In this document: positions 5,903-64,000 of the stretch, piece after piece
Layout: every line of letters begins with the position of its first letter
How positions within the stretch are numbered: position 1 is the first letter of the stretch
Assembly (NCBI GenBank): GCA_039621445.1
Contig: CP154954.1
Span: 39,765,816 to 39,829,815, forward strand
Direction of reading: 5' to 3'
Origin: Euglena gracilis
Lineage: Eukaryota
Length of the DNA: 64,000 nt
Notes under the pieces: model-generated
The model's database searches: none
The model's input: the letters and a program-made list of their open reading frames with translations, nothing else
What the model was told of the DNA's origin: nothing
Position numbers and translations under genes: made by a program

Positions 5903-5991
5903 TAGTTTGCCCCATTTTTGATTCCCCTCCAACATGCGGCTACGAACAAGAAACTGAAAAACGACAAGAAACTGAAAAGACTGACGCTGAC

Positions 5992-10413: not shown

Positions 10414-11796
10414 GTGTCTGAAAACTACCACGTGAAGGAAGATAAAATGACGGAAATTCTCTCACACTTCGGAGTCCAGCCCCAGCTGGATGCCTTTGCA
10501 ACGGAAAAAAAACAAAAGATTCTCGCAATGGTGGCATCGAGCAGCCATGAGGCCACAGACGCATTTGAGAAAGACTGGCACGGAAAACTGCTGTGGATGA
10601 ACTTCCCATTCAGCAAAACTTCACAGGTGGTGAGAAAAATTCAAACAGACGAGGCCCATGCACTCCTCATGGTACCCAGATGGGTTCACAGAAAGTGGTA
10701 CGGAGAAATCAAAAAACTGGCAGTGATGTCAATGTTCATTTCAGCGAAAACAAAACTGTTCGGACAGGGTGACAAGAAAAGCAGGGAAATACCGTGGCCC
10801 GTGGAAGTGTTTTTGGTATGCGGACACAAAACACGGTGCAAGTACCTACCAGGTTTCCACAAACATTTCACCCCCCTACACCCGACATCCAAGGTGAGGT
10901 TCGGCACAGCCAACGAGTACCCGCCAGTGGAGGACCAGGTGGAGGGTGGTGAACAAAAAACCGGTTTGGCAACTGAAAAACAACAGAAACACATCAGAAA
11001 AGTGCAGGAGGCAGCCACAGCGACACCAGAACGGGCCACAGCAGAAAAACTGAAACCGAAAATGCTGGACCTGTTCTGTGGAACAAAGTCAGTCAGCAAG
11101 GTGTATGACGAAATGGGTTTCGAGGTGGTGACAGTGGATTCAGACCCCAGGTGGAAAGCGGATTACCAGGTGGACGTACTGGACTGGGACTTCAGGAAAC
11201 ATTTCAAACCTGGTGACTTTCACACGGTGGTGTGTGGGGTTCCCTGCACAGAATTCAGCATTGCCCTGACGACAAGACCCAGAAACCTGGAAAAAGGAGA
11301 CAGCCTTGCAAAGAAAGCCCTGGAAATTGTGGAATTTCCGCAGCCGCAAAAATGGTTGTTGGAAAACCCAAGGTACGGATACCTGAGAAAACGAGATGAC
11401 ATGAAACCGTACCCGTACGTTGACGTGGATTACTGTCAATACACTGACTTGGGTTACAAAAAACCAACACGAATCTGGGGCAGCCCTGACATCCTGCAGG
11501 TACCAGCAAAACGGTGTGACGGAAAAACCTGCAAAAACCTGGGCCCGAACGGTGGTGGTCACCTGGTGAAACTCAGCAACAAAACAACATCCCAGCCTTC
11601 AAAAAAATTCAGGATCCCAGACAAACTGATTCAGGACCTGGCGGGGTTCCACGAACTACGGCAAACCAGCCAAGCCCAGGCCGCGCAGCAACCACCGCTG
11701 CAGCAGCCCAGCCCTGCCCAGACTGCACGACAAAACATGCTCTCACAGCCCAGACCAGAACCCGACAGGTCAACAGCCAAACCCAGATTCAACTGA
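10414..11796 (+). CDS. Fused Dam-like amino-methyltransferase (about 10414-10860) and C5-cytosine DNA methyltransferase (about 11060-11660)
   Basis: Open 460-aa frame. N-half: LDAFAT, DAFEKDW, LLWMNFPF, LMVPRW...WY. C-half: motif I MLDLFCG (11062), motif IV GVPCTEFS (catalytic PC at 11242), motif VI LLENP (11362), DYCQY..GYKKPTRIW, terminal RIPDKL. Confidence 0.9.
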   Translation: MSENYHVKEDKMTEILSHFGVQPQLDAFATEKKQKILAMVASSSHEATDAFEKDWHGKLLWMNFPFSKTSQVVRKIQTDEAHALLMVPRWVHRKWYGEIKKLAVMSMFISAKTKLFGQGDKKSREIPWPVEVFLVCGHKTRCKYLPGFHKHFTPLHPTSKVRFGTANEYPPVEDQVEGGEQKTGLATEKQQKHIRKVQEAATATPERATAEKLKPKMLDLFCGTKSVSKVYDEMGFEVVTVDSDPRWKADYQVDVLDWDFRKHFKPGDFHTVVCGVPCTEFSIALTTRPRNLEKGDSLAKKALEIVEFPQPQKWLLENPRYGYLRKRDDMKPYPYVDVDYCQYTDLGYKKPTRIWGSPDILQVPAKRCDGKTCKNLGPNGGGHLVKLSNKTTSQPSKKFRIPDKLIQDLAGFHELRQTSQAQAAQQPPLQQPSPAQTARQNMLSQPRPEPDRSTAKPRFN

Positions 11797-11848
11797 CAAA
11801 ACAGATCCAGACCAAAACATTCGGCTTCAAAAACGACTGTGTGAACCG

Positions 11849-12394
11849 GTGTCCAAACTCCTGCTGGGGCAGGCCATCAGCAGAAAAAAAGCAAAACAAC
11901 TCCTCATCGAAGTCCGTGCTGTTTTGCCAGACGGCAAAAAAACGTTCCTACAGGCCCTGATTGACACGGGAGCACAGGCAAACCTGGTGGAAAAGAACCT
12001 GATTCCCCAACAAAACTTCAGTCGTTCACAAAAACCCCTGGCCATGATCACAGCGGACGGAACAAGGATGGAAGAAGGACTACACGAAGTCACAGTGGAA
12101 CTGCAGTTTTCATCAAGGGTGCACAACACGGACAGGACAAGGGAGTGTTCCACCATTGGAACATTCCATGATGCCGACATCCAAGTGGTTGCCATCCTCG
12201 GGTATCCGTGGATGGAACAACACCAACTGGGGGTTTTCCCACACCTACAATCACTAGCCCTCATAGGTGAACCCCTGCGGCTGCTGTCCAGTTGGCACCA
12301 GCTGAAGGAACAAAAACACAGGGAACCTAAAATACACCAAATTCAGAAAAACATTTCGGCAGTGCGGGCAATGAATTTTCAGATTCCTGCTTAA
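11849..12394 (+). pseudogene. Retropepsin aspartic protease
   Basis: ALIDTGAQANL (D at 11963), flap ITADG, and AILGYPW. Confidence 0.9.
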
Positions 12395-12599
12395 GAGGGC
12401 CAGGACGAGGAAAGACTGTTCGAAGACGAAACAGCACTGGAAACACTGGCTAAACAACTTCAGAAATTGGCAAAGAAATCTGACAGGGTACACCGTGTTG
12501 TGGTGCTGCCAGAAGGACATGAAACACAAGGTGAAAAGGTGGCTGAACTGGTGAAAAACCTGCGGCAGGACTATGAAGGAGTGGTCTTGCAAGACAAAA

Positions 12600-13420
12600 T
12601 CTACCCAGACCCCCCAGAACGCGGACCACTGGGATTTGGAAAGATTGAGCTGAAACCTGGAACAGTGGCAAAAAAGCAAAGACCCATCCACATGACAGGA
12701 GAACGCACTCATCGACATGGTGGACGAATGCGTTAGGGACCTGAAAGTGGAAGACGGGAGGAGTGACTGGTCCAGCCCCACGTTTGTGGTGGCCAAAAAA
12801 GGTGGAAAGTGGAGAGGCGTGGTGGATTTCAGAGCACTGAACGAGGCAACAATCACAGATGCCCATCCCCTGCCTGGGATAGAAGACATCCTAGTTCAAC
12901 AAGGACAACGGGCCATGTATAGTGTACTGGACCTCATAGACGCATTCCATCAGGTGCTACTGAGAACAGAGTCCAGACCCTACACCTGCTGCAGCACACC
13001 TAAGGCAACAAAACAGTGGAGAGTGGTGTTCATGGGAATGAAAAACGGTGTACCGATTTTCCAGAGGGTGGTCGAGTACAGCCTGGAGGAGGTACAGGAC
13101 ATTGCAAACCCCTACGTGGACGACATAATCGTAGGAACCGTATGGCAGGGGTCAGAAGACAAAACCCTCGAACAACACGACAAGGACATCAGAAGGGTGA
13201 TGGAGGCACTGGAAAAACAGTAACACCGTGGCAGACATCAAGAAATGCAAATTTTTCGTGAAAGAGGTTGAACTCTGTGGACATTTGCTGGGTGGTTGAC
13301 AACGAAAACCAGCACCTGGAAAACTGAGGGCCTTGTAAAAATGAAAGGAACCAAAAACGGTCACAGCCCTACGGGCATTCCTGGGATTCACAAACTATTA
13401 TGCCTCATACACTCCAGGGT
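12600..13420 (+). pseudogene. Ty3/Gypsy reverse transcriptase (frameshifted)
   Basis: SDWSSPTFVVAKK..WRGVVDFRALN..DAHPLP, SVLDLIDAFHQ, MGMKNG, YVDD (13113), KCKFF. Confidence 0.95.
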
Positions 13421-13428
13421 ACGCGGAA

Positions 13429-14097
13429 TTGGCTGCAGGCCTGATGGAAAAACTGAAAGTGAAAAAGGGACAGGGAAAGAAAGGAAGCCTGACACCTGTG
13501 TTTTTCGGTGAAAAGGAACGAACCGCTTTTCAGACCATCAAAGAAAAACTGCTCAGAAGCCCCAATCTGGAAACGGTGAACCCAGACAAACCGTTCATAC
13601 TCAGGGTGGTTGCAAGTGGCAGAGCCGTAGGTGCGGCTCTGGAACAATTTGGGGAGGACACTCCAGAAAAACCAGAACCAACAACAGCCATGACCAAAAA
13701 AACAGTACCCGTAGCTTTCTGTTCACGAAAGCTGACACCTGGGCAGGTTCGCTCGTGGTCTCCTAGGGAAAAGGAGACCTACGCAGTGATCCTGGCCCTG
13801 CAAAAATGGGCTTCCTGGATAGGAATGCAACCGGTACTGGTGTTGACGGACCACAAGTGCATTGAGGCATGGGCAACGGAGGTTCTGGACACTCCCAGTG
13901 GACCAGCTGGACGTAGGGCTAGGTGGCACGAACTGCTTTCGCAGTTCGACATAACCGTAGCATACGTACCTGGCAAAGGCAACACGGTCGCCGATGCCTT
14001 GAGTAGGTGGGCCTACCCCGCCACACAGGCATTCGCCGACGTGAGTATCCACGGGAGTGAGGAGGACGACCGACTCATGAAAGAAATCATCAAATAG
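13429..14097 (+). pseudogene. RT connection and RNase H
   Basis: PFILRV.ASG.AVGAAL, PVAFCSRKL, EKE.YAV, TDHK, YVPGKGNTVADALSR. Confidence 0.92.
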
Positions 14098-14649
14098 GAG
14101 GAAAAGGAACAGAAAACTTGTATGGTGATCAACGTGGCAGACCTGGCACAGGCACAAAAACAACTTCAAAAACCCGTCACTGTGGCAGTCACAACAAGGG
14201 GGGGAGCCAAAACGGGTGAAGATTCGCCCACAGTGCCTGGTTCAACGGAAAACGGTGACACCCCTCAAAAAATTCAAAAACACCACAAAAACCTGCAAAA
14301 ACGTCAAAGAAGTGGGTTGTGAAGGAAGCGACTGTGGTGGAACCAAGCAAAAAACTGCAGAAGCAACCCCAAGGGAGACCACGGATGAGGCAGGAAACCT
14401 GATCCGACCAGACCAACTAAAAAAAAAAACCCCAGAAAATCCAAACACGGCCGAGGGACCATCCACTGAGGAACACCCAGAAAGGCGAAGACCCCTGGAA
14501 GAGGACCCTGTGGAACCCCTAACAACAAACGACTCAACAAAACAAAAGGACGCGCAAGGTGCGTCATCCTCAACGGGGACACCCGTTGGACCTCCATCAA
14601 GCGGAGTGCACGCCCCGGAGATTCAACAGGGGGAACCGAAAGGGGTGAT

Positions 14650-15770
14650 GGACAGGGAATGGAAGAACGAGTACGAAAGTTGCCCAAGGTGGGGACCTGT
14701 GCTCAAGGACCTGAAGGAAACGGGGTTCAAAAACTGGCCTGACGGGTACCGATTCGACAACGGCAGGCTCTTCAAAAACGGTCTCCTGTGTGTACCAAGC
14801 GGGTTGACTGGAAACGTAATTCGGGAACATCACGAAACAGCCGGGCACCCAGGGTCAGCCCAACTTTGGGACCAGATGGGAAGGTGGTTTGTGTTTGCGG
14901 ACCACCAGGATGCAAAAAAACTGACAGGCAAAATGATGACCATGTGTGAAACCTGCCAAGCAACAGAACCCAGCCACCTACCATGCAAGTGCCCCATTGA
15001 ACCGACACCGATTCATGCACACCTCATGGACAGTGTTGCTATCGTTCTGTTCTCTCTACCTGAAACGACCTTTGAAGTGAAAAAATATGACACGTTGGCG
15101 TTGTGTGTGGACAGGCTGAGTGGGTGGATGGTTGCAACCTCCCACCTGGCCAAGGGACTCGCAGCGGAAAAGGTTGGAAAGGAAATGTACAAACAGTGGG
15201 TAATTTTTGGGATACCCTCGGTGGTGAGCTCCGACCGGGGCTCCCAATTGACAGCCGGTTGGTGAAAACATTGTGCACTGTACGTATCCGTGTGGCGTAC
15301 GGGCAGGGGTACCCTGGGTTGAACTCCTACCGAACGCCTTGAAGGCCCTACACGACGTCCAAGGTGAAACGGGACTGTCACCGTACGAAATTGTGTTTGG
15401 CAGGCACATACCGTTGGCGGGATTGCCATATCAACCACAAAGGGAAGCGGAAGGGGCCACAGCGTTCTTGGGAAGGATGAAAGAACAAGACCAGTGGGTG
15501 AGCCTGGCCCTGAACGAAAAACAGCGTGAACGGGCTGAAACGGTGAACAGAAAACGCAGAGAACCACCTGCGTTGGAAATCGGCTCGAAAGTCTGGTATC
15601 AACCCGAAAGAAAACCTGGCACCGACAAACTCGAACCGAAGTGGAAAGGACCTGCGGTGGTGTTGGAACGGGTAGGACAACACTCCTAGGTGGTTGAACT
15701 ACGACCTGGAAACCGACAACCTGTCCACCGTTCACAACTCAAACCCCACGTGGGAGACCACTACAACAAA
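14650..15770 (+). pseudogene. DDE integrase with HHCC zinc finger and GPY/F-like motif (core partly deleted)
   Basis: HHETAGHPG..CETCQ, CVDRLSG, FGIPSVVSSDRGSQ, TGLSPYEIVFG, KLEPKWKGP. Confidence 0.92.
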
Positions 15771-15824: not shown

Positions 15825-16037
15825 CCGGATAAATGGGAGGTTGACAAAGTGCTGAACCACCGCAGAAAAGACGGAAAACTTCAATTTTTGATTCAGTGGA
15901 AAAACTGGGACCCGTCTGACACTCAGTGGGAACCCTTGAACCACTTCTTCCTCCGAACCAACAAAGATGTGGTCCAATATTGTAAGAAACAGGACCTGGC
16001 TGTGGATATGAGAGAGTTGCTTGATGGGATGGAGTGA
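15825..16037 (+). pseudogene. Integrase C-terminal chromodomain
   Basis: WEVDKVLNHRRKDGKLQFLIQWKNWDPSDTQWEPLNHF retains the aromatic residues. Confidence 0.9.
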
Positions 16038-16489: not shown

Positions 16490-18610
16490 ATATCCCCCCT
16501 TTGTCGCTGGATCTGGATCGGTGTTCTCGTGGCTGCTCCGCTACTCCCCGTAATTCCGTCGGAACGTGTCAGGTTGTTTCTGACATCTCAGTTCTGTTTC
16601 CACCTTTGCAAAAAAATTTTCCAGGGAGAGCTTTGTATGTACCACCATGAATCTGAATTGCTGTCCTGGGGCCAGGGCTGTGCCTTTTTTCATCATCAGC
16701 TGCTGGGATGCTCTGCTGCTTTCCAGGCTAGTGATGAAATCAGTTCCATCGGCTGTCACAAGGAACCTTTCGTCAGCCCCAAGTGTGGCTGGCACCAGCC
16801 CCTTCAAATTCAGGGTCGGTGTGTCTTGGTTCCTTCTTTATTGTTCTCGAATGCAGTTTCAGCGCATCATTTCAGGCATCCATTCAGCGAATAATCCGTA
16901 TGAATTGTCTGCGAAGGGGTGTTCGAATAAACTTTAGAGCAGTTTGAAGCGTGCTTCAAACACCCTCCGTGCCCCCAGAGTCAGTTTTCCATCGCACCTG
17001 GGTTTCTGGTTTTTCAGCTCCTCCTTTATTGCCAGCTGGGTGTCCCTTCCTACTTTCGGCAGAGACAATTCCAAAATTCCTGACACCTGGTTTTTTCTCC
17101 CCGTTCTTGTCGTCTCTGGAGCTCCAGCCGGCCCGTCTCGTCAAGGCTTCCCTCCAAAATTGTTAGTTTCCTGTCATCTATGAGGTGTCCTTTCCGGCTG
17201 ACAATAGGTTCAGGTAAACGGGGAATTTAACATAAAAACCTGAAAAAATTTCACTGGAGGAGCGGTCTGACCAAGTCTTTTGCCAGGTCTGCACCCACTG
17301 GTCCCATCAGCAGCCCAATGGATGGGTCATCCTGTGCTGCAACTGGGGCGACAACTGATTCTTTACCCACATGAAAAATAAGTGTGTATGTGCTGCACAG
17401 TTGGGGACCTGTGTTTTGTGGTCCTGGGTTTTCTTCTGTCACCCATGTGAACACATCCCGCGTTCGCGGCTGTGAGATCTGGCTAGGTCCCGTGTTTTCC
17501 CGTTGCTGAAACTGCTGTTGCATCATGTTTTTGATTTCAAACAACAGTTCCCTCTACAGTCGCTGCTGGTGATCCAGCATTGGGTACGTCGGTTTCGGTC
17601 GGAGTTGAAATGGTTGGGAGTCGGCTGAAAGTTCAAACACAGGTTGGAGTTCGGGGTGATGGGTCTTTGACACGGTGTGGTCCTGTCTGATTGAAAGTTA
17701 ATAAATTCTTCTTGAAAAGTTTGCACCATTACTTTTTTCCGTCAGAGTCCCAACCCACACGTGGCACAGGTTCGCGGGGTCCTTGGGTTCCCTTCCAAAG
17801 CTGTCCTTGAGGCACTCAGGTCCCCTCCCTGGGCTGTGTTAGGGGATATTGGGGCCGTTGGGGTCACTGGCTGTGGTGCTGAAGCTGCTGGGAGTGGGGC
17901 CGGGGTCGCTAGCTGGGCCCCATCGGTTCTGCCCAAGCCTTCGGCTGGGGACCAGATTCCAGCTCCTGCCGTGGTGGCTGTGGCTAGGCGGCTTTGCAGC
18001 CTTGCTGCAGCAGCTGGCTGGGGTTCTTGGGTTTGCACCGTCCCGTTTGGCGGTTCCGTTGTCCGTCCGGACACCTGGCCACTGGCCCAGTGGCTGGGGT
18101 TTCTGGGGTTTTCCCCGTCCCCTGTTGGAGCCGGTCGCTGGGAGAGCTAGAGACTGCTGAGAAAGAATAAAATTGAGGGTTTAAAAACTTTTTTTGTCTT
18201 TTGTGCCGGTTCAGTCAATTTAACCTTTTTTCGGTGGCCTCCCATTTCGTTTGCCACATTTGGTTCCGATTGTGGAACTCGGCAGTCAGCGATCTACACT
18301 GCAGCCAAATTCCAAAGTGTTGTGTTTCTTGCAGTGTTGTTCATGTGATCAGGTCTGTCAGCTGTGCCTCCAACCGTGCCACCTTGTTTACCATCTGTCC
18401 CAGTGTGGAAAACAGGTCGATCCACCTGGCCTGGTCACTGGCTTCCTGCAACCCAGTCTTGAAAACCCCCTTTTGGATTTTCTTCAGTGCCATCCGGAAT
18501 GTCTGAGCAAATTCCTCAAGTTTGTGTCCTAGCCCGGTCATTTCCTGGTTCAGACGGTCAAATCTTCTTTTGTTGTCATCTTTTGGAGCCAGGTTGTTCA
18601 AACGGCTGGT
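16490..18610 (-). pseudogene. Gypsy family B ORF1/Gag fragment
   Basis: IGLLMGPVGA..KDLVRPLLQ and AKVETELRCQKQ are homologous to family A Gag and to 55990-58020. Confidence 0.8.
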
Positions 18611-18629
18611 CAAAAGGGTTTGTTGTAAG

Positions 18630-37382: not shown

Positions 37383-38320
37383 GGGTAAAAAGGCAAAAAC
37401 CCAAAAATTCACACAAATAAGCACAGAAACAGGGGCCAGAGAGGTTGTATCGACTATTACCGAACAGAGCCTTCTCAGACCTGTATCTTTGCTTAAAGGT
37501 TGGCTAGGGGCCAGGAACAGTACTTTTACCGTACTTCACGGCCCAGCACGATCCTCACCACCAGTCAACCACAGAGTTTCTCTGTGTGGAATGTCTGTGT
37601 AGGATCGTTGCTGCTACCAAGTGTGCGTCCAATGACTTCCCTTTTGACCCCTTTCGCCCCAGAAAAGACTGTTTTGCTTTCTCCTGGTGCGCACCTACTT
37701 AGGTGAATAAAAATCCTTGGAGTAAAAAAAGGCTTTTCCCCAATTCCCCAATGCTAAAGCAGAGCACAAAGCAAGTCGCTGTGAAAGGATTTTCCTTCAC
37801 AGTCCTGTTCAGGATGTTCAGAGGTTCATCCTCTAACTTCAAAACAATCAAAATGTGAGGAATAGAACTCCACCTGTGAGAAAAGATATCACGCAGGCAC
37901 GTGTGATACGTGTCGCCAAATCCCATAGGATCTGCCACGATCGGCAGGCTGTGCTAATCACAGCCGTCAGATTGTGACGGAGCCAGACTCTGCAGGTTTC
38001 CCACAGAGCTGGGATCGTGCCTGGTACACATTTTCCCAACCTAAGCAGGTGCGCACCAGGAAAAGGCAAAAAGACTTCTCCGGGGCAAAAAGGGTCAAAG
38101 GGATGTCTTTGGACGTACACTGTAACCCACCCTCAACCTTCTTTGTCAATGCCCATGGCAGGCAAACCCAAACAAGGGGGTGACCCACACATTGACAAAC
38201 CCTATGGTATGTCAATCGACAACACCAACGACAAAGTGGAGGATCAGAGAGCCTGTGGGCAGATCATGCACAACACCCCAGCCACCTTTAGAGAATGCTC
38301 AATCCCCAGTGGTACCAGGG
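37383..38320 (+). repeat. ~940-bp dispersed duplication (second copy 53256-54200; partial third copy about 52720-53030)
   Basis: Near-identical sequence starts GGGTAAAAAGGCAAAAACCCAAAAATTCAC in both full copies. Confidence 0.85.
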
Positions 38321-40360
38321 GTGCAATGTCCAACACTCCCCACCTGGCACCCATAAAATCATCCAGTTGGGAAAATACTTTCCATGGAGGGAAAATGGGG
38401 AGACACCCCCCTGTACCAGAGACTTCAGAAAAGTTAAAATGGTGGGTGGACAAAAATGCCGCCACGGCTACAGGTCAATTGATAAAAATGGCATTCAACC
38501 CCCCTGGGTGAAACCCCCAAAATTGTCTACCAACCCAAAGCCCAGGGTCAACGTGGACCAGGGCAGAAAAAATTCAGCTGGATTGCAAAAAAAAACTGGG
38601 TCAGTGAAGCGAGTTTGGGATTCAGAAACCCAGCATTTGATCCCATGGTTCTAATTTGAGAACCAGAAGGGGGAAGAACTAAATGGAGAATGATCAGCGA
38701 ATGCAAACAAATAAATCTGCAGTTCCAAGTAAAACTTTTCAAGCTGGATCATATCCAACACATTTTTCCAGTTTTGGAAAAAGGTCACTGGGCAGCAAAA
38801 ATAGACCCAAAGGCTGCCTATTTACATATTCCAATAAGTCCAGACCTCAAGCTACTTTTAAGGCGTCAGGTGGGGGGGCAGACCTTGGGATTTCAAACAG
38901 GCTGCTGTTGGCTAAATCTAATGCCCCAGTTTTTCATGTCAGTGATGAAAACATTATAAAAACTGTGGAGAAAATGTATTTACCTGGACGACATTTTGCT
39001 AGTGCCCGCCAGCCAAACATTTTACAAAATCACCTGAAAACTGTCGTCAGAGATTTGCTAGATTCTGGGTTCAAAATCAATGTGAAAAGGTCCACCCTGC
39101 TTTACATTGATGCAAAATGGATTCTTTTCTCCAAAATTCCTGAACAATTTCTCCTGTGTGCATGTCTAGCCCCCCCCCTCAAGCATGGGTGCTGATGTCT
39201 GTGTGCAACACTCTGGTTGCATTTTGGGGCTGCCCCCCCAGGTGTCTAGCAGAATTTTTATTTCCCTTAATTAAGCTTTGACTTCTCGGGAAATGGGGTG
39301 TTTTGAGTCCCAGAGGGCTGTGGACTTTGCCACCAAAAAATGTTGCCAGGGTGTCTATAAAAACCCTTAAACTGGGCGGGGCCATTATGGTGAAATCTTT
39401 TTGGGCCCAAAATGGCAGCCAATTGCCTTTTTGAGATGTAATCTTTTTTCACAATTTTTCCCAGCTCTTTTTATACGGTTTTGACTTTCTGGTGGGGGCA
39501 CGTGTAACTTTCCTTCCGGACCTCGGTGCAGCAATCAGCACTGTGAAAAGTTTGAGCAAACCTGGGGAAACAGTTTCGTTGTCAGTGGACAACCAGATAA
39601 TTTACTTTTACCTAACAAAACGTGGGGGCAGAAAGGATCCCTTCTACAAAATGCTGACACCATTTCCCAAGTGGTGCATGGAGCACGAAGTAAACCTCCA
39701 AGTCAACTGGGTACCTTCAAAAGAATGCCTGGCAGACCCCATCAGCAGATGAAATATGGACAGGGGGATTATTCTTTAGACCCCCAACTCTTTCAATGGC
39801 TCAAAACAGCAGTTCAAAAAATTCATAAATCTAGAAGCGGATTTATTTGCCTCCCCAGTCAGAAAAAAAAACTGCCCAATTTTGTGGCCAGGTCGCCCCA
39901 TTTGGATGCCACAACAGTAAATGTATTACAATGTCCACTGGACAACACGGGGGATCTTTATGCAACCCCCCCCCGGTCAAAAATTCAAAAAATTTCTACC
40001 CAGGTTGAAAATTTCCCAAGACCAAAGTTTTGATGGTCACCACCTACTGGAATTCAGCCATCTGGTGGCCCCAGTTAAGAAAAATGAAAGAGAACCCGCC
40101 TGAAAATCACCCCCTACGGGGGCATGTTCATCAATTGCAGGGGGGAGCAAATGCCACCCCCCAGGTGGCCCCTGCTTGCATGATTTTCTCAGGCAAATTG
40201 TGGAGGGGAACAAATTCATGTTGAGACCATAAACGACTTTCTGGGGAGAAACCCCAATTTGAAACGTTATCAGGGTGCTTTTGCACTTCTATGGGTAGTT
40301 TTGGAACACATGGGGGTGTCCCCCCCCCATTGGCCACCACTGACCAGGTGGGTGACGCAT
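38150..40360 (+). mobile_element. DIRS family 2 degenerate copy (RT, RH, MT) with an internal inverted piece at about 39110-39490
   Basis: AAKIDPKAAYLH, YLDD (38981), VDNQ, LADPISR, GDYSL, LYATPP. Confidence 0.8.
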
Positions 40361-52704: not shown

Positions 52705-53044
52705 GTGGCAACTCTGTACCGGGCTCGATCCCAGCTATGACGGAAAACTGCAGAGAGTGGATCTGTTACAACCTGACGGCTGTGATTAGCACAGACTGAC
52801 GACCTTTGCAGGTCCTATTGGAATTACCAAAACGTATCACACGTGCTCGCATGATCTGTTTTCCTCACAGGTGGTATTCTATTTCTCATATTCTGGTTCT
52901 TTCCATGCAAGAGTAAAATCCTCAGAACAAACTGAACACGACTGTGAATGAAAAACCTTACACAGCGCCTTGTCTTGTGCTCTTCCTTAGCATAGGGGAA
53001 TTGGGGGAAAGGGTTTTGTTACTCAAAAGAAAAGCCCTGTGGAA

Positions 53045-53255
53045 GTGAGTGGTTAAAATTTGGTCCGAGGTTATATTTAAGTTAGGAGGGTATTATTCTA
53101 ATTTTTCATGATTGAAACTGTAGGCCCCTGGTTGGGTCAAGTCCCCTGGTTAGTTCTCTGGGGGCCTGGGTTAGCTTTTAAGGATGACGCATGAGGTTAG
53201 TGAACTTACCAGGGCACTCAGCACCCCTGACTCACACTACCCTTCCCAAGGAGTT
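53045..53255 (-). repeat. Start of an LTR B with an adjacent polypurine-tract-like flank
   Basis: Minus strand reads GGGAAGGGTAG|TGTGAGTCAGGGGTGCTGAGTG. Confidence 0.7.
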
Positions 53256-56200
53256 GGGTAAAAAGGCAAAAACCCAAAAATTCACACAAATAAGCACAGA
53301 AACAGGGACCAGAGAGGTTGTATCGGCTATTACCTAACAGAGCCTTCTCAGACCTGTATCTTTGCTTAAAGGTTGGCTAGGGGCCAGGAACAGTACTTTT
53401 ACCGTATTTCACGGCCCAGTACGGTCCTCACCACCAGTCAACCACAGAGTGTCTCTGTGTGGAATGTCTGTGTAGGATCGTTGCCTAAATCTGCTACCAA
53501 GTGTGCGTCCAAGGACTTCTCTTTGACCCCTTTCGCCCCAGAAAAGACTGTTTTGCTTTCTCCTGGTGCGCGCCTACTCAGGTGACTAAAAATCCTTCCA
53601 GTAACAAAAGCCCTTTTCCCCAATTCCCCTTTGCTAAGGCAGAGCACAAAGCAAGTCGCTGTGAAAGGATTTTCCTTCACAGTCCTGTTCAGGATGTTCA
53701 GAGGTTTATCCTCTAACTTCAAAACAATCAAAATGTGAGGAATAGAATACCTCCTGTGAGGAAAAGATATCACACAGGCACGTGTGATATGTGTCGCTAA
53801 ATCCCATAGGATCTGCCACGATCGGCAGGCTGTGCTAATCACAGCTGTCAGATTGTGACGGAGCCAGACTCTGCAGGTTTCCCACAGAGCTGGGATCGTG
53901 CCCGGTACACATTTTCCTCACCTAAGCAGGTGCGCACCAGGAAAAGGCAAAAAGACTTTTCCGGGGCAAAAGGGGTCAAAGGGATGTCTTTGGACGTACA
54001 CTGTAACCCACCCTCAACCTTCTCTGTCAATGCGCATGGCAGGGGCAAACCCAAACAAGGGGGTGACCCACAAAGGGGCCCCTATGGTACGTCAATCGAC
54101 AACACCAACGACAAAGTGGAGGATCAGAGAGCCTGTGGGCAGATCACGCAAAACCCCCCAGCCACCTTTAGAGAATGCTCCATCCCCAGTGGTACCAGGG
54201 GCTGTCCCCCCCGGTCCCTTGTTGTGTGGGGGGGGGATGGAAAGCGCCAGGCGCGACCACAACCCCCGCTTTTTTTACAAGGGGGTAGCTCCCTTTTGGG
54301 GGGTTCTGCCTTAGCCTACCAAGCGCTCACTCACCGGCCAGGGGCAAAATTTTACAAAAATCAAGCGAGGGTTGAGTCAGGGTCTTTCGGTTAAAACCGG
54401 GCTTGGGCAGGGCCAGTTTTTTTTTCCTTTTTTTAGGAGAGGGCAGGTGTTTGGTTCCTCCCATGGACTCCAAGATATGGAGGGGGGGTGGCAGGGGTCC
54501 AGCACCACCCACAACCAATACTTACTTGTTTTCATTATTTTTTGAGGGGGGGCAGTTGGCTGGGCCCCTGGTTTTTTTGTTTTTTTTTGCCTCGGTGACA
54601 CACCTCCCCGCCCCAGGTCCAGTTCCTGTACTGGGGGGGGGGGCAGGTCAGCGCCACCCACCTCAGCCAAAGGTCGTTTTCAATCCTTTTTTCAACGCTC
54701 CCAGGGGAAATATCCTGGTACTCCCAGCTCTGTCAGGCGTCGGGGGGGGGGGCGGCAGCAGGTTCACCTTTGCTCCACCCCCTCTCAAAAATTTCACAAA
54801 TGAAAGCAGAGAGCTGGGTTTTAGTTGAGCCCTCTACGCTGTCCAGGTGTGGCCAACCCAGGTTCTGGATTTTTCTGCAGGTCCGGGGCTGCCCCCCCCT
54901 TCTATGCCCTTCGTCGACGGGGGGGGTGGGGGCGGGCGCCAAGGGCAGCCCAAGGTCCCTGTTTTGGGGGGTCAGTTCGTTGGGCCACACTTCTTTTTCC
55001 TTTTTTGTCTTTTTTTTTGTTTTGGGTGCGGTAGCTGGACCCCCCCTCCCAGGACCCTTGTCGGGGGAAGCGGCAGACGCCAAGCGCCGCTCCCCCCTTT
55101 TTTGATAAAAATTCTCTGAACCGACTTTGGGCTGCCGGTGGGGGGAACCCAGGTCCTGCGGGGGGGGGGGTACCCTGGTTCACTGGGGGGGGGGGCACCC
55201 TGGGTTCGGTGTGGCGGGAGCACACAAACTGGTGGTCCAGTTTCGTGCAGAACAATGACAGAATTGCAGCAGGAGTTCCAAGCTTTCAGGTGGGCCACTG
55301 AGTTTGTGAAACAGAAAACCACGGAGGTGATTCAACGACTTCAAAACACCACGGAACTGCAGTTCACACGAATGGAACATCAGATGGTCACTCAGGGGAA
55401 CGGACAGACGGGTCGGCGTGGCGAAGAGAAGCTGGGTATGAAGAACTGTCCACACACCTGGCCACGATTACAGAAAACAGAGAGGGATGATGACGCATCA
55501 AAACAGGCTGTACCGGACACATTTTGAGAACCTGGCACAACAGATTTGGGACCTGAAAGGGATGGAATGGTCTACTGGACGAGAAAATAAACGGGTTTGA
55601 GGGTTTGCAGCAGGTGAAAGGGGGAAGCACACAGACCCAGGGGCAGCAACTCATTAAGTTACTCGGCCAGCAGAAACAAAATGCGCGAGTGCTACAAGAA
55701 CTGCAGATGCGGATGCAGAGGGTCGAACAGACAATGGCTGGGTTGGCTGAAGGTCAACGGGAGGTGAAATCACGGGGAGCAGAAACAGAACGTCAAGTTG
55801 GGACTTTGACAGGTAACTGTGAAGAGACGTTGAAAGAACTGAACCACAGACATAAGAACATTTTACCAAGGCAATGGAAAGCCGGAACGTAAGAGTGGAA
55901 CAGCTGTCCGAGGGACGACAACACGACCAAACATTGGAAAAGCAGATGACTAAACTTTCACCAGAAATGGCCATTTTGACCAGACGCTTGGACACACTGG
56001 CCTCAAAAGACGTAAACAAAAGAAGATTTCACTGCCTGAACCAGGAAACGACACGGCTGGGACACAAAGTGGAGGAATCAGCCCAAACCTTCAGAAGGGT
56101 GCTCGGAGAATTCCAAAAAGGGGTTTTCAAGAGTGGGTCACAGGAAGCCAGTGAGCAGGCCAGGTAGATTGACGTGCCATCCACACTGGGACAGACAGTA

Positions 56201-59200
56201 AACAAGGTCGGACGGTTGGAAGCACAGCTGAAAGTCCTGACTACACGAACAACACTGAAAGAAACGCAAGACTCTGGAATTTGGCAGCAGCAGTGTAGAT
56301 CGGTGCCTGCCGACTTCCACAGCCAGAACCAACTGTGGCAGACGAAATGGGAGGCCACCGAGAAAAGATGAAACGAACTGACTGAACTGACACAAATGAC
56401 AAAAGAAAGTTTTGAAAAATCTCAATTTTATTCTTTCTCAGCAGCCTGTAGCTCTCCCAGCGACCGGCGCCAACAGGGGGCGGGGAAAACCCCAGAAATC
56501 CCAGCCCCAGGGCCAGTGGGCCAGGTGTCCCGACGGACAACGGAACCACCAAACGGGAAGGGGCAAACCCAAGCACCCAAGCCAGCTGCCGCAGCAAGGC
56601 GTCAAACCCAGGCCCAGCCACAGCCATCACGGGGCAGGGGCTGGCATCTGGGCCCCAGCCGAAAGCTTGGGCAGAACTGATGGGGTTTGGGGGACCCCAG
56701 CCAGCGGCCACAGCCACACAGCCAGCAGTCCCGACCGTACAGCCAGTGACCCAAAAGGAGGTCTGCAGGCCCAAAAGCACCCTAACACAGCCCAGGGAAG
56801 GGACAAGAGGACCGCAAGGTCAGCTCAGGGTGGGGACCTGAGGACCACGAGAACCTGAGCCAGGTGTGGTTTTGGACCTCCCTGACCGAAAAACCCTAAT
56901 GGTGCATACGGTTCAAGAAGAATTTAAAACACTTTCAAGCCGACAGGACCCCCCCCCCGTGTCATATACCCATCCCCCCAAACCCCAGCCTGTGTTTGAA
57001 CTGCAGCCGACGCCCAATCATTTCACCCCCGACCGAAACCGACGGACCACATGCTGGAACACCATCAGCGACTGGAGAGGGAACTGTTGGAATTTAAAAA
57101 ATATGATGTAACAGCAGAGTAAGCAACTGGAAAACACAGGTCCCAGCGAGATCTCTCAGCCGCGAACTCGGGATCTGTTCACATGGGTGACAGACGAAAC
57201 CCAGGACCACAAAACACAGCAGGTCCCCAATTCGGCAGCACATACACACCCATTTTCATGTGGGAACAGAAACGGTTGTCGCCGCAGTGGCAGCACAGGG
57301 TGCCCCCTCCATTGGGCTGCTGATGGGACCAGTGGGTGCAGCCATGACAAAAGACCTGGTCAGACTGCTCCTCCAAGGAAATTTTGCAGATTTTTCTGTG
57401 AAATTCCCCATCTACCTGAAAAGATTGTCAGCTGGACAGGGGCCCCTCACAGATGACATGAAACTAACAATTTTGGAGGAAAGCCTTAACGAGACGGGCC
57501 TGCTGGAGCTCCAGCGAGACAAGTACGGGGAGAAAAAATCAGGTATCAGGAATTTTGAACTGGCTCTGCCAAAAGTACGAAGGGGACACCCAGCTGGCAA
57601 TAAAGGAGGAGCTAAAAAACCTGAGACCCAGGTGCGATGGAAATCTGACTCTAGGAAGGGAGTTTGAAGCACGCTTCAAACTGCTCTACAGTCGGTTGGA
57701 ACACCCCTCCGCAGACGATGCATACACATCGGTCGCTGAACGGATGCCTGAAATGATGCGCAAAAACTGCATTCGTGAACAAGACAGAAGGAATCAAGAC
57801 AGATCCACCCTGAAATTGAAGGGGCTGACGAGCGTACCTGGGGTCCCAGACGCAACAAGGGAAGACGTAGCAAGACTGGTGGCAGCCACACTGGTGGCTG
57901 ACGAAAGGTTCCTCGTGAAAGCCGACGGAACCAGTTTCGTCATCAGCCTGAACAGCAGCAGAGCATCCCAGCTGCTGATGATGAAAAACGGCACAGCCCT
58001 GGTCTCAGGACAGCAACCCAGGCTCTACAGGTACGTTGGCGCGGGGCTTTTCTGCACTGCAAGTATCATACAAGTTTGTGCAAGTTGGGGGATGGTCCAG
58101 TGTGTCTAGATAATTTCACCACATCAGACTTCTGGCCAATTCCAACTTTTCGGCCTTCAGGGGTCTTCTTCACAAACTTCCCCACACAGCACCCCAGAAG
58201 ACAAGACAGATACTTTGAATCCAGTTCAGAGTCCCACGCAAACTTGTACACTGTTTGCCAGCCTGCCTGTGAAAAATGTATTTCCCCAAAAACGTCTGTG
58301 AAGCAAGTCCTAATTTCTGCTGTCGCTTCTTACAAAAAAAATCTCAAATCTGGCCCGCGCTCTCGCCCTGTTGGACCAGGATGTCTTCGATCCGGGGGAG
58401 GGGGTGTGCGTCTGTCACCGTGGCCTCTTTCAGGGCCCTGAAATCCACCACCCCCCTCAACTTTCCCCCTTTCTTGGTCACCATGAACGTCTGGATATAC
58501 CAGTCACTTCTCCCATTCTCCACTTTTTTATCCCTGAAGCACTCGTCGACCATGTCCAGGAGTGACTGTCGGCGTTCTCCGGTCACGTGGATGGGTCTTT
58601 GTTTTTTTGCAACGGACCCAGGGTTGAGTTCTATTTTCCCGATGCCTAGTGGACCACGTTCAGGGGGGTTTGGGTAGACCTTGTCCCTCAACACCACTCC
58701 CTCGCAGTCTTTACGCAGCTTTGCTACCAAATCTGTCACCCTGTCTCCCTCCACAGTCTGCCCTTCAGGCACGGCTATCACCCCCTGGACCTCCTGTGGG
58801 TCTTTGCGTTTTCTGCTTGCCAGATGTTGGGCCAGATTTTCCATAACTGTTTCGACTTGAAACAAAATTTCTTCCGTTCCACCCGCTTCTGCAGGCACCT
58901 GCAGATTCATGGCCCGCACCTTGTTAGTTTTCTTGAAAATTTTTCTGTTGCACTGTTCCCGTTCTCTTAATCCTTCCAACTTGTCAGCAGGATCAATGGT
59001 TCCCTTATCAGGGCCAGGGAATGTAGGTGTGGAAGAAACCCCTAAGTGGTGTATCTCCATCCAGGGAAACCCCAAAATGGCATCCACCTGTATTGCCGCG
59101 TCGTGGAAGGTCACTGTGGTTGTCCATTCCCTGGGACGTGAGTTTCAGTGTCAGTGTCGTTTCTTGCAACCCTCCCCCATCCGTGTGCCGTCGGTAGTGA

Positions 59201-59205
59201 CAAGG

Positions 59206-60969
59206 TGTGAGTCCTGGCAATTGTAGTCACTCACAGTGGCACTCCCTAATTCAAAAAATTGAATCCTAATTTAAGTTCATTTCTTCTGTTTCTGTGTACC
59301 TGGCAACAAACGTGCACTGTTTACCTGGACTTACCTGGATGTCTTTAGACTTATATGGAAGTGCACTCTGATTGGAATTTTGTCTACAGCTGGTGAATTG
59401 AAGACAAGTTGCAAGTTGGAAACTGCTGAAAGCATGCAAAGAGCACCAGGGGTAGAACACATAAACAGTGCATCAGGTTGCGCCCGGTATCGACAGTCTG
59501 AGCCCGAGAAGAAGGACTATCTGAAAGTGCCCCTGTGCCCAAATGTGTGCAAGCCATCAGAGATTGCAACGTGAGATTGAAGATGCTGAATCACCTCTAT
59601 GTGATGTTGAAGCTTCCACCAGCTGTGAGTGATGAGATTCAGGTCTTTGGGGAAGAAGAGATGGAAGGAAGTCATGGTTTCCCTGCAGAAGTATGTAAGA
59701 CATTTGAAGATCATGTTGTCATCCTGCTGGTCGAAGCCAAGCCACAGTCAAGTCTTTTGCCAGTTGTGTGTTCAAGAGGTCACAGATGGTACTTTTATCC
59801 GCCGGTAGTCTCGACTATTTGAAGGAGATGGGTCCAGAAGTTTTTGGGAAGTTCTAATGGGACCGGAGGTCCAGATGAAGGAGGAGTTCATCACGCCAGA
59901 TCACTGTTATACGACTGCTGAGTTGGATTGCAAGGTCAGACAGACAAGTGGTTCAAGGAGGAGATGGCGAGAAAGGCAGCTGAAGCGTAAGTATGGTGCT
60001 TCTGGGCATGGAGCCCCCTCTGCGAGGGATGGCCAGCCTAGAAATGTCAGACAGTGTGCCTCTGCTGTGGATGGCACATCAGACATTTGATTCTGTGACT
60101 TGGACAGGGAGCCTCTTCTGGCGGGATGGCCCCTCCATACTTGTTCTCTGGTGTTGTTTGTGTGCCTCCAATGGGGATGGCCAGACAGCAATGGTATGTT
60201 ACCAGTGTGCCCCTCAAGGTTGGTGGCCCAGTTCTCCTTTTTCGGATTGGCGTTGGGGTCCGGTGACTTGTGTGCCCCCTTGTCATGAGGTGGCCCAGCC
60301 CCCCCTTAATCCGGCTGTCACCTGTGCGCCTCTCCTTTGTGAGATGGCCCAGTGACGAGAACATCGCCTGAAGCCTGGTTTTTAATTCTTTCCGACATCA
60401 CTGTGTGCCTCTGAGACTGATGGCCCGTGATGGCTTCGTGCTGTGCTTGACTTGCAAAATGTGATGATTTCAAAGACCTGGACTTGCCCAGCGGTGAAGA
60501 GCTTTTGGGTTTGCAGTTCGCCTTGGTGAAGAACCGTGGACATGGGGGTCGTGCTGTTCGACAATTGTTCGAATCGAAATTACGGATCGTCTGACATTTT
60601 GCTGTACGGCAGCCCTTGCTCCAATTTTTGGAGGGGCATTGCCAAGACCTGGTCCTAAAAAGAGAGTCGACAGAAAATTGCAGACAATATTTCCGAGGAG
60701 GGGAGTGTGAGTCACTGGTCCTGGCAATTGTAATTACTCACAGTGGCACTCCCTAATTCAAAAAAGTGAAGCCTAATTTCAGTTCATTTCTTCTGTTTCT
60801 GTGTAGCTGACAAAAAACATTCACTGTTTACCTGGGGTTACCTGGATGTCTTTGGACTTATCTGGAACTGCACTCTGATTGGTAATTTTGCCTACAGCTA
60901 GTCACGTCAAGACAAGTTGCAAGTTGGAAACTGCTGGAAGCATGCAAAGGGAACCAGGGGTAAAAAACA
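59206..60969 (+). mobile_element. Non-autonomous LTR element (TRIM/LARD-like) nested in the family B protease
   Basis: LTRs 59206-59461 and 60706-60969 are both TG..CA. PPT GAGGAGGGGAG at 60695-60705. TSD AAGG at 59202-59205 and 60970-60973. Confidence 0.9.
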
Positions 60970-61264
60970 AAGGGACAAGGTTTGGTTTGACAACGTGAAT
61001 GCTCCTAGGGGTAGAAGGTCTTTTCTGATCAGGTTGGTTTGGGCCCCTGTGTCCACGAGGGCCTTCAGGTCCACCGTTTCACCCTTCTGGCAGACCGCAC
61101 GAATGCCAATAAGAAGTTTCTTGAACTTCCCCCGTTTCACCACCTGTCCCAACAGTTGTTCCGATTCTGGCCCAAGCAACCGTTTTGCAGGTGAACGTTT
61201 TAATGGTACCTCAGTGGTATATTTGGCTGTGCCGCAGGCTCCCGTGTGTTTTTTTTATCTCCCC

Positions 61265-61860
61265 AACCAGCCGAATCTTGGATCAGTATTTCTGGAATTC
61301 GATACTTTTTGCTTCTGCAAATACTCGTTGTGTTAAAGATTTTCACCCAGTGACCCTTCTGCACTGGGATCAGGTTGGGACATGTTCTCCCGTCACACAG
61401 CTTTCCCTGCACCTGCAGAATATCTGGGCTGCCCCAGATTCGTATTGGCTTCTTGTACCTCCAGTCGGAGTTTTGACAATAGTTCACATCCACGAAGGGA
61501 TATGGTTTCGTGTACTCCCTGTGTCTGAGGGACCCGTGTCGTGTGATTTTACAGCCACCATTACTGTGGTGGCAGAAATTTCACGATCTCCAAGGCCTTT
61601 TTGGCCAATGCGTCCCCGTTCTCCAGCTGTCTTGATCTAGTTGTGAGTGCCAGGCCGAATTCCGTGCAGGGAACCCCACAGACCACCGTGTGGAATTCCC
61701 CAGGCTTAAGAACTTTTTTGTAGTCCCACGTCAGAACGTCCACCTGAAAATCTGCCTGCCATTTGGGGTCCAGGTCCACCGTCACCACCTGAAACCCCAT
61801 TTATTCATAAACCCGGCTGATTAACTTGGTGCCGCAGAAAAGGTCCAGCATTTTCAGTTT
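61265..61860 (-). pseudogene. C5-cytosine DNA methyltransferase, family B copy
   Basis: KMLDLFCGTK, VVCGVPCTEFG, NYCQ..YKKPIRIW, YRIPEILIQD. Contains stops. Confidence 0.88.
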
Positions 61861-62029
61861 TGGTTCTGCTGAACGGTCTGAAATGTTTGCTACCGGCAGG
61901 ACTGTGTTTCCCGGTGGCGGTCGACCACCACCCGCTTCCTCTGTCTCCAAAGGTGGGACGTGTTGCACTGTCCCGAAGCTGACCTTGGATGTTGGGTGAG
62001 GGGGGTCATGTGCTGGTTGAAGCCCGTCA

Positions 62030-62480
62030 GGTAGTCACAGCGTTCCGCGTGTTCACACAACAGTAGCACCTCCACTGGCCAGTGTGTTTCACTGCAACCC
62101 TTGTCATCTCTGCCAAAAAAATTGGTTTTTGAGGGAAAGTCATGGACATGAGAGCCAGTTTTTTGCCGGTGGGTGCTAAACTCGGTGTTTCCACTGGGGC
62201 ACCATTAAAACCGCCTGTGCCTGGTCTGCCTGGATTTTTTTTGATCTCGTCAGGGATCTTGTCGAACGGTGGGTTGATCCACAAGAGGCTGCCCTGCCAG
62301 CTTTTTTGGAAGGCATCTGTGCCGTGCGGGCTTTCTGGTCCCCAACGATGCGGGAACCCATTGTCCTGTTCTGTGGCGAAGGCATCCACCTGTGGTTGCA
62401 AACCGAAATGTGAGACGATTTTTTCCGCAAAAACGTCCTGCAGGTAGTACTGGTTGTTGATCCAACGGGACGCTGCCCGC
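62030..62480 (-). pseudogene. Dam-like amino-methyltransferase, family B copy
   Basis: QVDAFAT..DAFQKSW..LWINPPF..VLMVPQW. Frameshifted. Confidence 0.88.
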
Positions 62481-64000
62481 CCAAACCTGCAGCTAGCCTC
62501 CTCTCGTGGCACCTGAGTCCTTGTGTTTTGTCTTTGTCTGTTTTGTGCTCTCCGGTCTAAACCCCTGGATCCCTTACCTCCCTCCGTTCGCTGTTTCTGC
62601 TTGGTAAGGGCTGCTTTCTGTCCCTCGGTTCGGATTGTTTACTCAGAGAGTCGCCCCTCTCGGGCCCTTCCTCGATACCGCAGCCATTTCACTTCTGCCC
62701 CTGAGCAGCAACCTGCTGTCCAGTCTGTGGTACTGCGGTTTTCTGTGTCCACCACGGTGGCTGTGGACACTTCCGTTTGAAATGTCCTGGCTGTTCACAG
62801 TTGTAACACCGTCCTTCATCTGGAGGTGGTATGTATCTGGGCTGTCCGGCTGTCCCAGGGTTCTGTGTCGACTGCCAGGATGGTAGTCCTTTTCCTTAAT
62901 TTTCTTTCACACTCCCCTTCCCAGACCCTTTTCCCTTGCCTTGGTCAGGATACGAACCCTGTCCATTGCGTTTTCCTTTCCCCTGGCTGTGATCCACAGC
63001 GGTCTAGACTGCCCAATTTTGGCCCAGATTTGTTGGTGGTCTGGGTTTTGTGGAATTGGAACGGGAATGGTCGGTGGGGTCTTTTTTGCTTCTGGTTCGA
63101 GAGGAATCAGTTTCCTTCACCTCCCGCACATACCCCCTTTTGTCGCTGGATTCGGTGTTCTCGTGGCTGGTTCTGCCACCGCCCGTAGGCAAAGAGTGTA
63201 CAAGTTTGCGTGGGACTCTGAACTGGATTCAAAGTGTCTGTCTTGTCTTCTGGGGTGCTGTGTGGGGAATTTTGGGAAGAGGACCCCTGAAGGCTGAAAA
63301 GTTGGATTTGGCCAGAAATCTGATGTGGTGAAATTATCTGGACACACTAGACCATCCCCCAACTTGCAAGGCTCAACGGTCAATGTACAGTGTGTTGGAC
63401 CTAAAGGATGCTTTCCATCATGTACCCATGAGAAAGGAATCTCGACCCTGCACCTGCTGTAGTACACCAAGAGGAACAAAGCAGCGGAAAGTTGTGGTGA
63501 TGGGGATGAAAAACGGAGTCCCAATGTTCCAGAGGGTCCCTGAATACAGCCTGGAGGAGGTGGCAGAAACTGCCAACCCCTGCGTAGATGACATCATCCT
63601 AGGCACAGTTTGGCAGGGAACAGAAGAGGCAACAATTTTCCAACACGACAAGGACATCCGCAGAGTCATGAAGGCACTCAAGAAACAGCTGCTCGAAGCC
63701 GACATTAAAACATGTAAGTTTTTTGTTCATGAGGTGGAATTCTGCACACACATCCCCTTTTTCTCTAGTCCCCTTTTCACCTTGAGTTTTTCCATCAGGT
63801 CCGCTGCCAGTACGGCGTATCCTGGGATGTAGGAGGAGTAGTAGTTGTTGAATCCCAGGAATGCGCGGAGGGCTGTGATGGTTTTTGGTTCTTCCCACTT
63901 TTCAAGGGCCATCAGTTTTCCTGGGGTTGGTCTCCGTTGTCCTCCTGTGTTTTTTTGGGGAGAAGGAACACAAGGCGTTCCAGGCCATCCAGCACAAACT

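Follow-up and report, generated by a model that had tools for sequence, protein, structure and literature searches.

Long terminal repeat (LTR) retrotransposons that combine a DAM domain, a cytosine DNA methyltransferase (DNMT) and a chromodomain have been described as EpiLTRs in Euglena gracilis and Cymbomonas tetramitiformis, besides elements termed DAM-LTRs (Fernandez-Moreno et al. 2026, bioRxiv 10.64898/2026.05.21.726589). The main text of this preprint reports a conserved Asn-Pro-Pro pocket in the DAMs, more N6-methyladenine (6mA) on DAM-LTR insertions and low LTR expression in Euglena, and it treats the EpiLTR DNMT as an acquisition separate from other retrotransposon DNMTs (bioRxiv 10.64898/2026.05.21.726589). 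It was the sole paper found in the literature on Euglena that joins retrotransposons with adenine methyltransferases. DNMTs were also described in retrotransposons of Symbiodinium and Klebsormidium, where parts of the article propose self-methylation of complementary DNA (de Mendoza et al. 2018, PMC5890265). Here we analysed a stretch of 64,000 nucleotides of E. gracilis DNA (contig CP154954.1, positions 39,765,816 to 39,829,815; hereafter the window), which is a nest of eukaryotic retroelements. Two of these, elements A and B, carry a cassette of a Dam-like N6-adenine methyltransferase domain and a compact C5-DNMT. The element type is already known, having been published as EpiLTR. We consider it very probable that A and B belong to diverged families, two in number, within a single chromovirus-like Ty3/Gypsy lineage of the EpiLTR type of DAM-LTR, in which an ancestral and selected Dam-like and DNMT cassette opens Pol, the B copy being dead.

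The cassette in elements A and B

On the minus strand of element B, from 62,895 down to 60,970, a Gag zinc knuckle is followed by the Dam-like domain, the C5-DNMT and the protease. The Gag end (62,692–62,895) contains a CCHC zinc knuckle (Pfam zf-CCHC, E 8.2e-7, 29.3 bits). Because the reading frames of the cassette behind it are broken, a frameshift-aware alignment to element A was used; on their own, the four open reading frame (ORF) fragments of the B cassette matched no Pfam family. In this alignment, a broken Dam-like domain (about 61,993–62,506, minus strand) corresponds to A residues 64–235 at 54% identity and holds the motif NPPF at 62,275–62,264. A broken compact C5 cytosine methyltransferase domain (about 61,269–61,854, minus strand) corresponds to A residues 294–488 at 69% identity, with FCG at 61,839–61,831, PC at 61,671–61,666 and PCTEF at 61,671–61,657. 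The N-terminal part of the protease lies at 60,970–61,185 on the same strand (49% identity to A protease residues 68–139 by tblastn), with DTGA at 61,053–61,042. The initial annotation had proposed this order of Gag end, Dam-like domain, DNMT and protease, and the zinc knuckle, the motifs and the alignment to A show that it is real and lies where it had been placed; NPPF, FCG and PC, said to be retained in B, were all found.

The cassettes of the two elements are colinear. A single blastn match spans them (A 10,454–11,585 to B 62,421–61,327, 67.4% over 1,141 bases), the region of A matched to B extends over 10,180–12,394, and the frameshift-aware protein alignment scored 1,156 over A residues 2–508. 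Nucleotide identity was 67–74% in three colinear blocks, and the colinearity runs through both domains, through both linkers and across the Gag stop, the rearrangements of B lying outside the cassette. Amino-acid identity between A and B was 54% for the Dam-like domain, 69% for the DNMT and 70% for reverse transcriptase (RT) plus RNase H, in keeping with the clear protein divergence that had been claimed.

Element A occupies about 5.5–16.6 kb on the plus strand. Its cassette is an open frame of 538 codons (10,180–11,796, plus strand) encoding the Dam-like domain, with NFPF in this copy, and the DNMT. Frame residues 93–187 match Pfam Dam (PF05869; E 6.8e-5, 23 bits, under the 28.1 cut-off) and residues 294–397 match Pfam DNA_methylase (PF00145; E 2.4e-5, 24.4 bits, over the cut-off of 22). 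Protease, RT, RNase H and integrase follow at 11,630–15,265 on the plus strand (Pfam RVP, gag-asp_proteas, RT_RNaseH, RT_RNaseH_2 and Integrase_H2C2), and behind the integrase is a chromodomain (15,834–15,938, plus strand; Pfam Chromo, E 1.7e-10, 41.1 bits, cut-off 25.1). By these Pfam matches, the Ty3/Gypsy-type pol set of aspartic protease, RT, RNase H and DDE integrase is present in element A. A DIRS retrotransposon identity was considered for A and rejected, as Integrase_H2C2 is present and no phage-integrase match was found among the 45 ORFs scanned.

The canonical NPPF that the initial annotation stressed in B, set against NFPF in A, does not amount to a family difference. The relative P0002, 88% identical to A, has NPPF together with a conserved RFPQWWGSGSP stretch, at which place A has NFPF and 19 garbled residues; on this comparison, NFPF is a private defect of copy A. 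Two frameshifts damage copy A further, one ahead of the protease at a place where the frame of P0002 is uninterrupted, the other inside RT.

Nor was the claim of a different LTR confirmed. A repeat search found no LTR pair flanking A or B within the window, B running off its end, and two blocks upstream of Gag are shared at 81% each (A 4,844–5,045 with B 53,054–53,256, and A 5,192–5,408 with B 54,197–54,412). The upstream regions differ by a 941-bp high-copy insert in B. This repeat (53,256–54,201) recurs at 37,383–38,321 with 94% identity and has an extremely high word depth in two DNA runs.

Inheritance and selection

DNMT trees, made as quick searches without bootstrap, placed A, P0002 and B in one clade with SH-aLRT support of 98 (57 rows) and 99 (96 rows). 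This clade is nested in a clade of 14 rows, in which the order Dam-like domain, DNMT, protease was found in all nine rows with both domains annotated; over the whole DNMT tree, the order of the two domains switches only twice among 28 rows. Together with the colinearity, these results show, at the level of sequence comparison, that the common ancestor of A and B already had the cassette.

Selection on the cassette was assessed from codon pairs of the A/B alignment, using the NG86 ratio of nonsynonymous to synonymous differences per site (pN/pS) with a bootstrap range, counts by codon position and a neutral simulation. The ratio was 0.37 (0.30–0.48) for the Dam-like domain (168 codons, pN 0.287, pS 0.773) and 0.27 (0.20–0.35) for the DNMT (192 codons, pN 0.188, pS 0.692), compared with 0.25 (0.21–0.30) for RT and RNase H pooled (330 codons). 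In the linkers it was 0.80 (A residues 2–63; 59 codons, pN 0.470, pS 0.588) and 0.79 (A residues 236–293; 46 codons, pN 0.381, pS 0.481), with ranges that include 1. Differences at codon positions 1, 2 and 3 numbered 63, 37 and 96 of 169 for the Dam-like domain (0.37/0.22/0.57, p 3e-10) and 44, 38 and 93 of 195 for the DNMT (0.23/0.19/0.48, p 2e-10); the corresponding linker counts were 54, 59 and 66 of 125 (0.43/0.47/0.53, p 0.31). When the observed number of substitutions was placed at random in 2,000 simulations per region, the observed amino-acid identity was never reached in the Dam-like domain or the DNMT, and three times in the linkers. The pattern recurred in an independent metagenome lineage: the loci L005 and L010 differed with pN/pS of 0.24 in the Dam-like domain and 0.27 in the DNMT, and L005 and L004 with 0.45 and 0.41, versus 0.30 in RT.

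These comparisons support purifying selection on the cassette, about as strong on the DNMT as on RT and somewhat weaker on the Dam-like domain. The initial annotation had held that the cassette is an inherited, selected family trait and not a chance insertion, and this is borne out by colinearity, the DNMT clade, the nine of nine rows with the same order, the codon-position signature and pN/pS. Of the dN/dS comparison of both methyltransferases with RT that it had suggested as a check, the part expressed as pN/pS came out in favour, while absolute dN/dS proved weak and saturated.

Among relatives, the arrangement of the two domains varies. A search with the RNase H of A for longer proteins returned 396 matches, of which 120 were listed and scanned with our own hidden Markov models. 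Twenty-eight of the matches listed had at least 800 residues upstream of RNase H; 15 of these carried both domains, 10 a DNMT only, one a Dam-like domain only and two neither. Among the matches listed the orders were DNMT–protease (8), DNMT–Dam–protease (7), protease–Dam–DNMT (4), DNMT–protease–Dam (2), Dam–DNMT–protease (1) and protease–Dam (1), counts that do not represent frequencies, as retrieval of relatives was biased and many proteins are incomplete. RNase H–DNMT was seen in proteins with less upstream sequence, and Dam–protease–DNMT in metagenome loci. Across the relatives (proteins P0061–P0179 and loci L004, L005 and L010), at least seven orders of Dam-like domain and DNMT around protease, RT and RNase H were observed, and each clusters in the DNMT tree.

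Decay and rearrangement of element B

The B cassette is a pseudogene. Aligning the A frame to it revealed six frameshifts on the minus strand (near 62,601, 62,242, 62,166, 62,140, 62,003 and 61,545), those from 62,242 to 62,003 lying in the Dam-like domain and that at 61,545 in the DNMT. The same alignment gave four in-frame stops, one in the Dam-like domain (62,178–62,176) and three in the DNMT (61,803–61,801, 61,563–61,561 and 61,551–61,549). The last of these replaces the Glu of the ENP motif, and in total five DNMT positions conserved in relatives are changed in B (E395 to stop, P397T, D417N, G425R and T430I). Copy B thus lacks the motif set of an active C5-methyltransferase: FCG and PC are kept, the ENP Glu is a stop and further positions are changed. 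Copy A, by comparison, retains every invariant column of the DNMT (motif I FxG, IV Pro-Cys, VI Glu-Asn-x, DYCQ and KPTR). Copy B is an old, dead, rearranged relic and cannot be active.

The remaining parts of B are dispersed over both strands. The main part of Gag lies at 55,971–58,018 on the plus strand; A Gag residues 115–372 match 57,257–58,025 at 60–63%, and A 8,767–9,482 matches B Gag 57,308–58,018 at 69% by blastn. The C-terminal part of the protease and the N-terminal part of RT lie at 58,356–59,204 on the minus strand (tblastn and alignment to A 12,140–12,914). The C-terminal part of RT, on the strand opposite to the cassette, lies at 63,368–63,744 (plus strand; 74% identical to A 12,900–13,277 at both the nucleotide and the amino-acid level). 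Overall, the protease, RT and RNase H pieces of B align to A at 49–79% amino-acid identity. Element B leaves the window at 64,000, and its integrase and chromodomain region is beyond the window.

The protease of B is split by a nested 1.76-kb insertion (59,205–60,969, no strand assigned), which has 252-bp terminal direct repeats (59,211–59,461 and 60,718–60,969, 89% identical) and is flanked by a duplicated GACAAGG(T); it looks like a small non-autonomous terminal-repeat element. In addition, about 5.3 kb of B (58,019–63,373) is inverted with respect to B Gag and to the rest of B RT: Gag reads on the plus strand up to 58,018, the stretch that opens with the zinc knuckle and closes with the N-terminal half of RT reads on the minus strand (62,895–58,356), and RT resumes at 63,368 in plus orientation. 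One change of strand falls at 58,366/63,374 and a further one near 63,750, where RNase H flips (63,750–63,894). The inverted segment is bounded by an inverted repeat whose left (58,079–58,259, plus strand) and right (63,188–63,368, minus strand) copies are 94.5% identical in inverted orientation, and whose word depth is very high in two DNA runs. Contigs from both of these runs end at 63,369 and carry sequence for a colinear RT (..IEDILVQ); therefore, other copies are not inverted. Among the contigs listed from the DNA runs, none spans the B inversion junctions. The inversion may have arisen by recombination between inverted repeat insertions, or it may be an assembly error.

Many inverted duplications were also observed elsewhere in the window. 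Element A ends at 16,658, where it abuts an inverted 2-kb B-like Gag piece (16,658–18,618; 81% to 55,971–58,016), which breaks off at the same Gag position where the colinearity of B itself breaks. The Gag region of A (5,521–9,834) is unusually long, its frames comprising 537, 361 and 486 codons, and it is rich in A, with an AT skew of about 0.4; Pfam gives only weak coiled-coil-like matches. The 580 bases that precede the A Gag stop showed no CCHC knuckle in any of the three forward frames, whereas B has one.

Reads were mapped on 53,000–64,000 of the window. In DNA run X1, the cassette bins had word depths of 1,857–9,406, similar in magnitude to those of Gag and RT; the DNA runs consist of contigs, so that summed word depth does not equal copy number.

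Read-through, substrate and known systems

Immediately ahead of the cassette, A (10,177–10,179) and B (62,691–62,689, minus strand) have an in-frame TGA at aligned positions; in B it was seen between Gag and the cassette on translation in the cassette frame. Metagenomic relatives have TAG instead at that place (L004:3768, L005:4296 and L010:2679), with a GC-rich stem a few bases downstream, an arrangement that resembles gammaretroviral read-through signals. Between L005 and L010, the first 28 codons past the stop have a pS of 0.29, versus 0.78–0.96 elsewhere, which suggests a constrained RNA signal, and the 90 bases from the Gag stop of L004 gave an RNA fold with z −3.2. The cassette would form the N-terminus of a putative read-through Gag-Pol product.

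The structure predicted for P0002 contains two confident domains (residues 1–148 and about 210–430, pLDDT mostly >90) and disordered linkers; modelled alone, the Dam-like domain reached a pLDDT of 91.2. Its model is a confident N6-adenine-methyltransferase fold. The Dam matches of P0002 (31.9 bits) and L005 (45.5 bits) are both over the PF05869 cut-off (28.1). Of 19 Dam-like domains that could be assessed, 15 have NPP[FYW], L005 and L006 in this set being near-identical and not independent; the exceptions are A (NFPF), L004 (NHPF), P0011 (HPPW) and P0030 (NPPC). B and P0002 have both D-x-F-A and NPP[FYW]. Fold and motifs fit the catalytic role that the initial annotation had thought probable for the Dam-like domain, and the E. 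coli assay and the PCIF1 placement cited below speak against it. A third Dam-like domain was observed at the left edge of the window (978–1,415, minus strand), with NPPW and QEAFAS motifs and 23% identity to that of A; no DNMT match was found beside it.

The DNMT part of P0002 matches the catalytic domains of DNMT1 and DNMT3 (E 4e-8). Its best match among predicted viral structures was a putative Tetraselmis virus 1 DNMT with a length of 218 residues (E 1e-20, TM 0.79, 34% identity), and a family profile searched against PDB sequences gave only weak matches, to DNMT1 motifs IV–VI (E 2e-4) and to generic S-adenosylmethionine-dependent methyltransferases. Gene-dense metagenome contigs (L019, L025, L037, L047, L053, L067 and L074) also encode the compact DNMT as a gene of its own, about 210 residues long. 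In six such contigs whose neighbouring genes were scanned, a capsid gene of the double-jelly-roll type (Pfam Capsid_N) was found in L047 and L053 and a D5/PriCT-type primase in L025 and L037, and these contigs resemble polinton-like viruses or other eukaryotic DNA viruses.

If A and B descend from one lineage with an ancestral cassette, Pol would begin directly behind the Gag stop with the Dam-like N6-adenine methyltransferase and then the compact C5-DNMT of about 210 residues, followed by protease, RT, RNase H, integrase and chromodomain. Both enzymes would be made only within the Gag-Pol read-through product and carried with the particle, where they could deposit 5-methylcytosine and 6mA on the new DNA copy or on an intermediate of replication. 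The marked insertion would then fit the heavily CG-methylated, 6mA-marked genome of the host.

Several observations weigh against this account. Neither copy in the window is intact, and RNA reads on B are almost nil (18 + 44 at ≥90% likeness over 11 kb, cassette depth at most 0.38). P0063, the closest long RNase H relative among the matches listed (73%), has no detectable DNMT before the protease; its sequence opens with the tail of a Dam-like domain, has only an ENPR-like remnant where the DNMT is expected and is counted among the two proteins with neither domain. The 90 bases from the Gag stop gave no significant RNA fold in A (z +1.35) or B (z −0.22), so that the case for read-through in these two elements is that the stop has kept its position. 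Protein similarity guided the alignments, and this biases pN low. As synonymous sites are saturated (pS 0.67–0.77), absolute dN/dS is unreliable: NG86 gave 0.11 for the DNMT and for RT plus RNase H and was undefined for the Dam-like domain (dS infinite), LWL85 gave 0.21 and 0.20, and the Biopython maximum-likelihood estimates were unstable (Dam-like 0.02, DNMT 0.92, with implausible dS). Furthermore, eukaryotic DAMs expressed in dam-deficient E. coli produced no 6mA (bioRxiv 10.64898/2026.05.21.726589, main text), and parts of another article assign the MT domains of retrotransposons to the PCIF1 clade and regard those of DIRS1 as likely inactive (Iyer, Zhang and Aravind, PMC4738411).

The last two points also bear on the substrate. 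The Dam-like domain could have been kept as a member of the PCIF1 clade and not as a DNA adenine methyltransferase, methylating RNA (its own transcript or an RNA:DNA intermediate) or only binding, with the DNMT as the sole DNA modifier. The best solved structural match of its model is indeed PCIF1/CAPAM (Foldseek E 1.2e-5, TMq 0.63; VIA Z 11.4, root-mean-square deviation 3.7, 144 of 150 residues aligned), ahead of EcoDam and T4 Dam, which come next (Z 8.7, 110–113 aligned), and the main text of the preprint suggests an RNA-DNA hybrid substrate for DAMs (bioRxiv 10.64898/2026.05.21.726589). However, in Pfam the domain falls into PF05869, the phage-type Dam family, with scores over the cut-off in P0002 and L005, and predicted phage Dam structures match the model too; no solved PF05869 structure appears in the match lists, and the rank of PCIF1 may only reflect what has been solved. 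The conservation of D-x-F-A and NPP[FYW] argues against a dead binding module, and the additional 6mA reported on DAM-LTR insertions also weighs against this alternative. We regard this alternative as possible but rather doubtful. An extended proposal appears unlikely as a whole: that in a chromovirus-like clade the two domains were permuted repeatedly around protease and RT (at least seven orders: Dam–DNMT–protease, DNMT–Dam–protease, Dam–protease–DNMT, protease–Dam–DNMT, DNMT–protease–Dam, protease–Dam and RNase H–DNMT), each order being stable within its DNMT clade, that the A/B type expresses both only by read-through of the Gag stop, and that the Dam-like partner may be of the PCIF1 type, with element RNA or an RNA:DNA intermediate as its substrate, and not a DNA Dam. 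If true, a partner of this type would explain the negative E. coli assays.

It is highly improbable that the cassette is a neutral passenger, that it reached A and B separately by chance or nested insertion, or that B is an assembly chimera. B is certainly scrambled, with its strand switches and nested element in a window rich in inverted duplications, and none of the contigs listed bridges the inversion junctions. Against this stand the colinearity through the linkers and across the Gag stop, the position of A and B as sisters in the DNMT tree, and the codon-position and pN/pS tests, which reject neutrality in both domains and not in the linkers; the rearrangements lie outside the cassette, and the contigs ending at 63,369 show that unrearranged copies exist. 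A single lineage with an inherited and selected cassette remains the reading that we prefer. On that reading, two DNA-methyltransferase-type domains have long been maintained under selection in a retrotransposon lineage, and they are therefore working parts of the element and not debris. The domain orders, the position of the cassette behind the Gag stop and the likeness to PCIF1 bear on the timing and substrate of the enzymes.

Among described elements, the SymbioDIRS-Dnmt3, SymbioLINE-Dnmt and KnitGypsy-Dnmt3 elements likewise carry a cytosine methyltransferase within a retrotransposon polyprotein; as described in parts of that article, these are DNMT3-type or orphan DNMTs with no Dam-like partner, and the element classes differ (DIRS, LINE) (PMC5890265). 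The DIRS1-type MT resembles A and B in being a small NPPF-type adenine methyltransferase within a retroelement polyprotein, and PCIF1 is also the best solved match here. The DIRS elements have a tyrosine recombinase, whereas A has a DDE-type integrase (Integrase_H2C2), and the motifs are conserved here, in contrast to the DIRS1 copies called inactive in parts of the source (PMC4738411). The stand-alone viral DNMTs are alike in size (about 210 residues), fold and motifs, at 34–45% identity; they differ in being free genes on DNA-virus-like contigs and in forming a clade apart from most retroelement DNMTs (SH-aLRT 98).

EpiLTRs are the closest counterpart. An EpiLTR is a Ty3/Gypsy-like LTR element whose Dam-like domain is joined by a C5-DNMT and a chromodomain, and element A has each of these; the Dam-like domain, the C5-DNMT and the protease, RT and RNase H of a Ty3/Gypsy pol were found in both A and B, and the integrase and the chromodomain in A. 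The preprint sets the EpiLTR DNMT beside DNMT4, whereas the nearest structures and sequences found here are small stand-alone viral DNMTs. Its main text gives no Euglena domain order, position behind the Gag stop or selection test, so that the selection test presented here adds to it, and element B is a further instance of the published kind.

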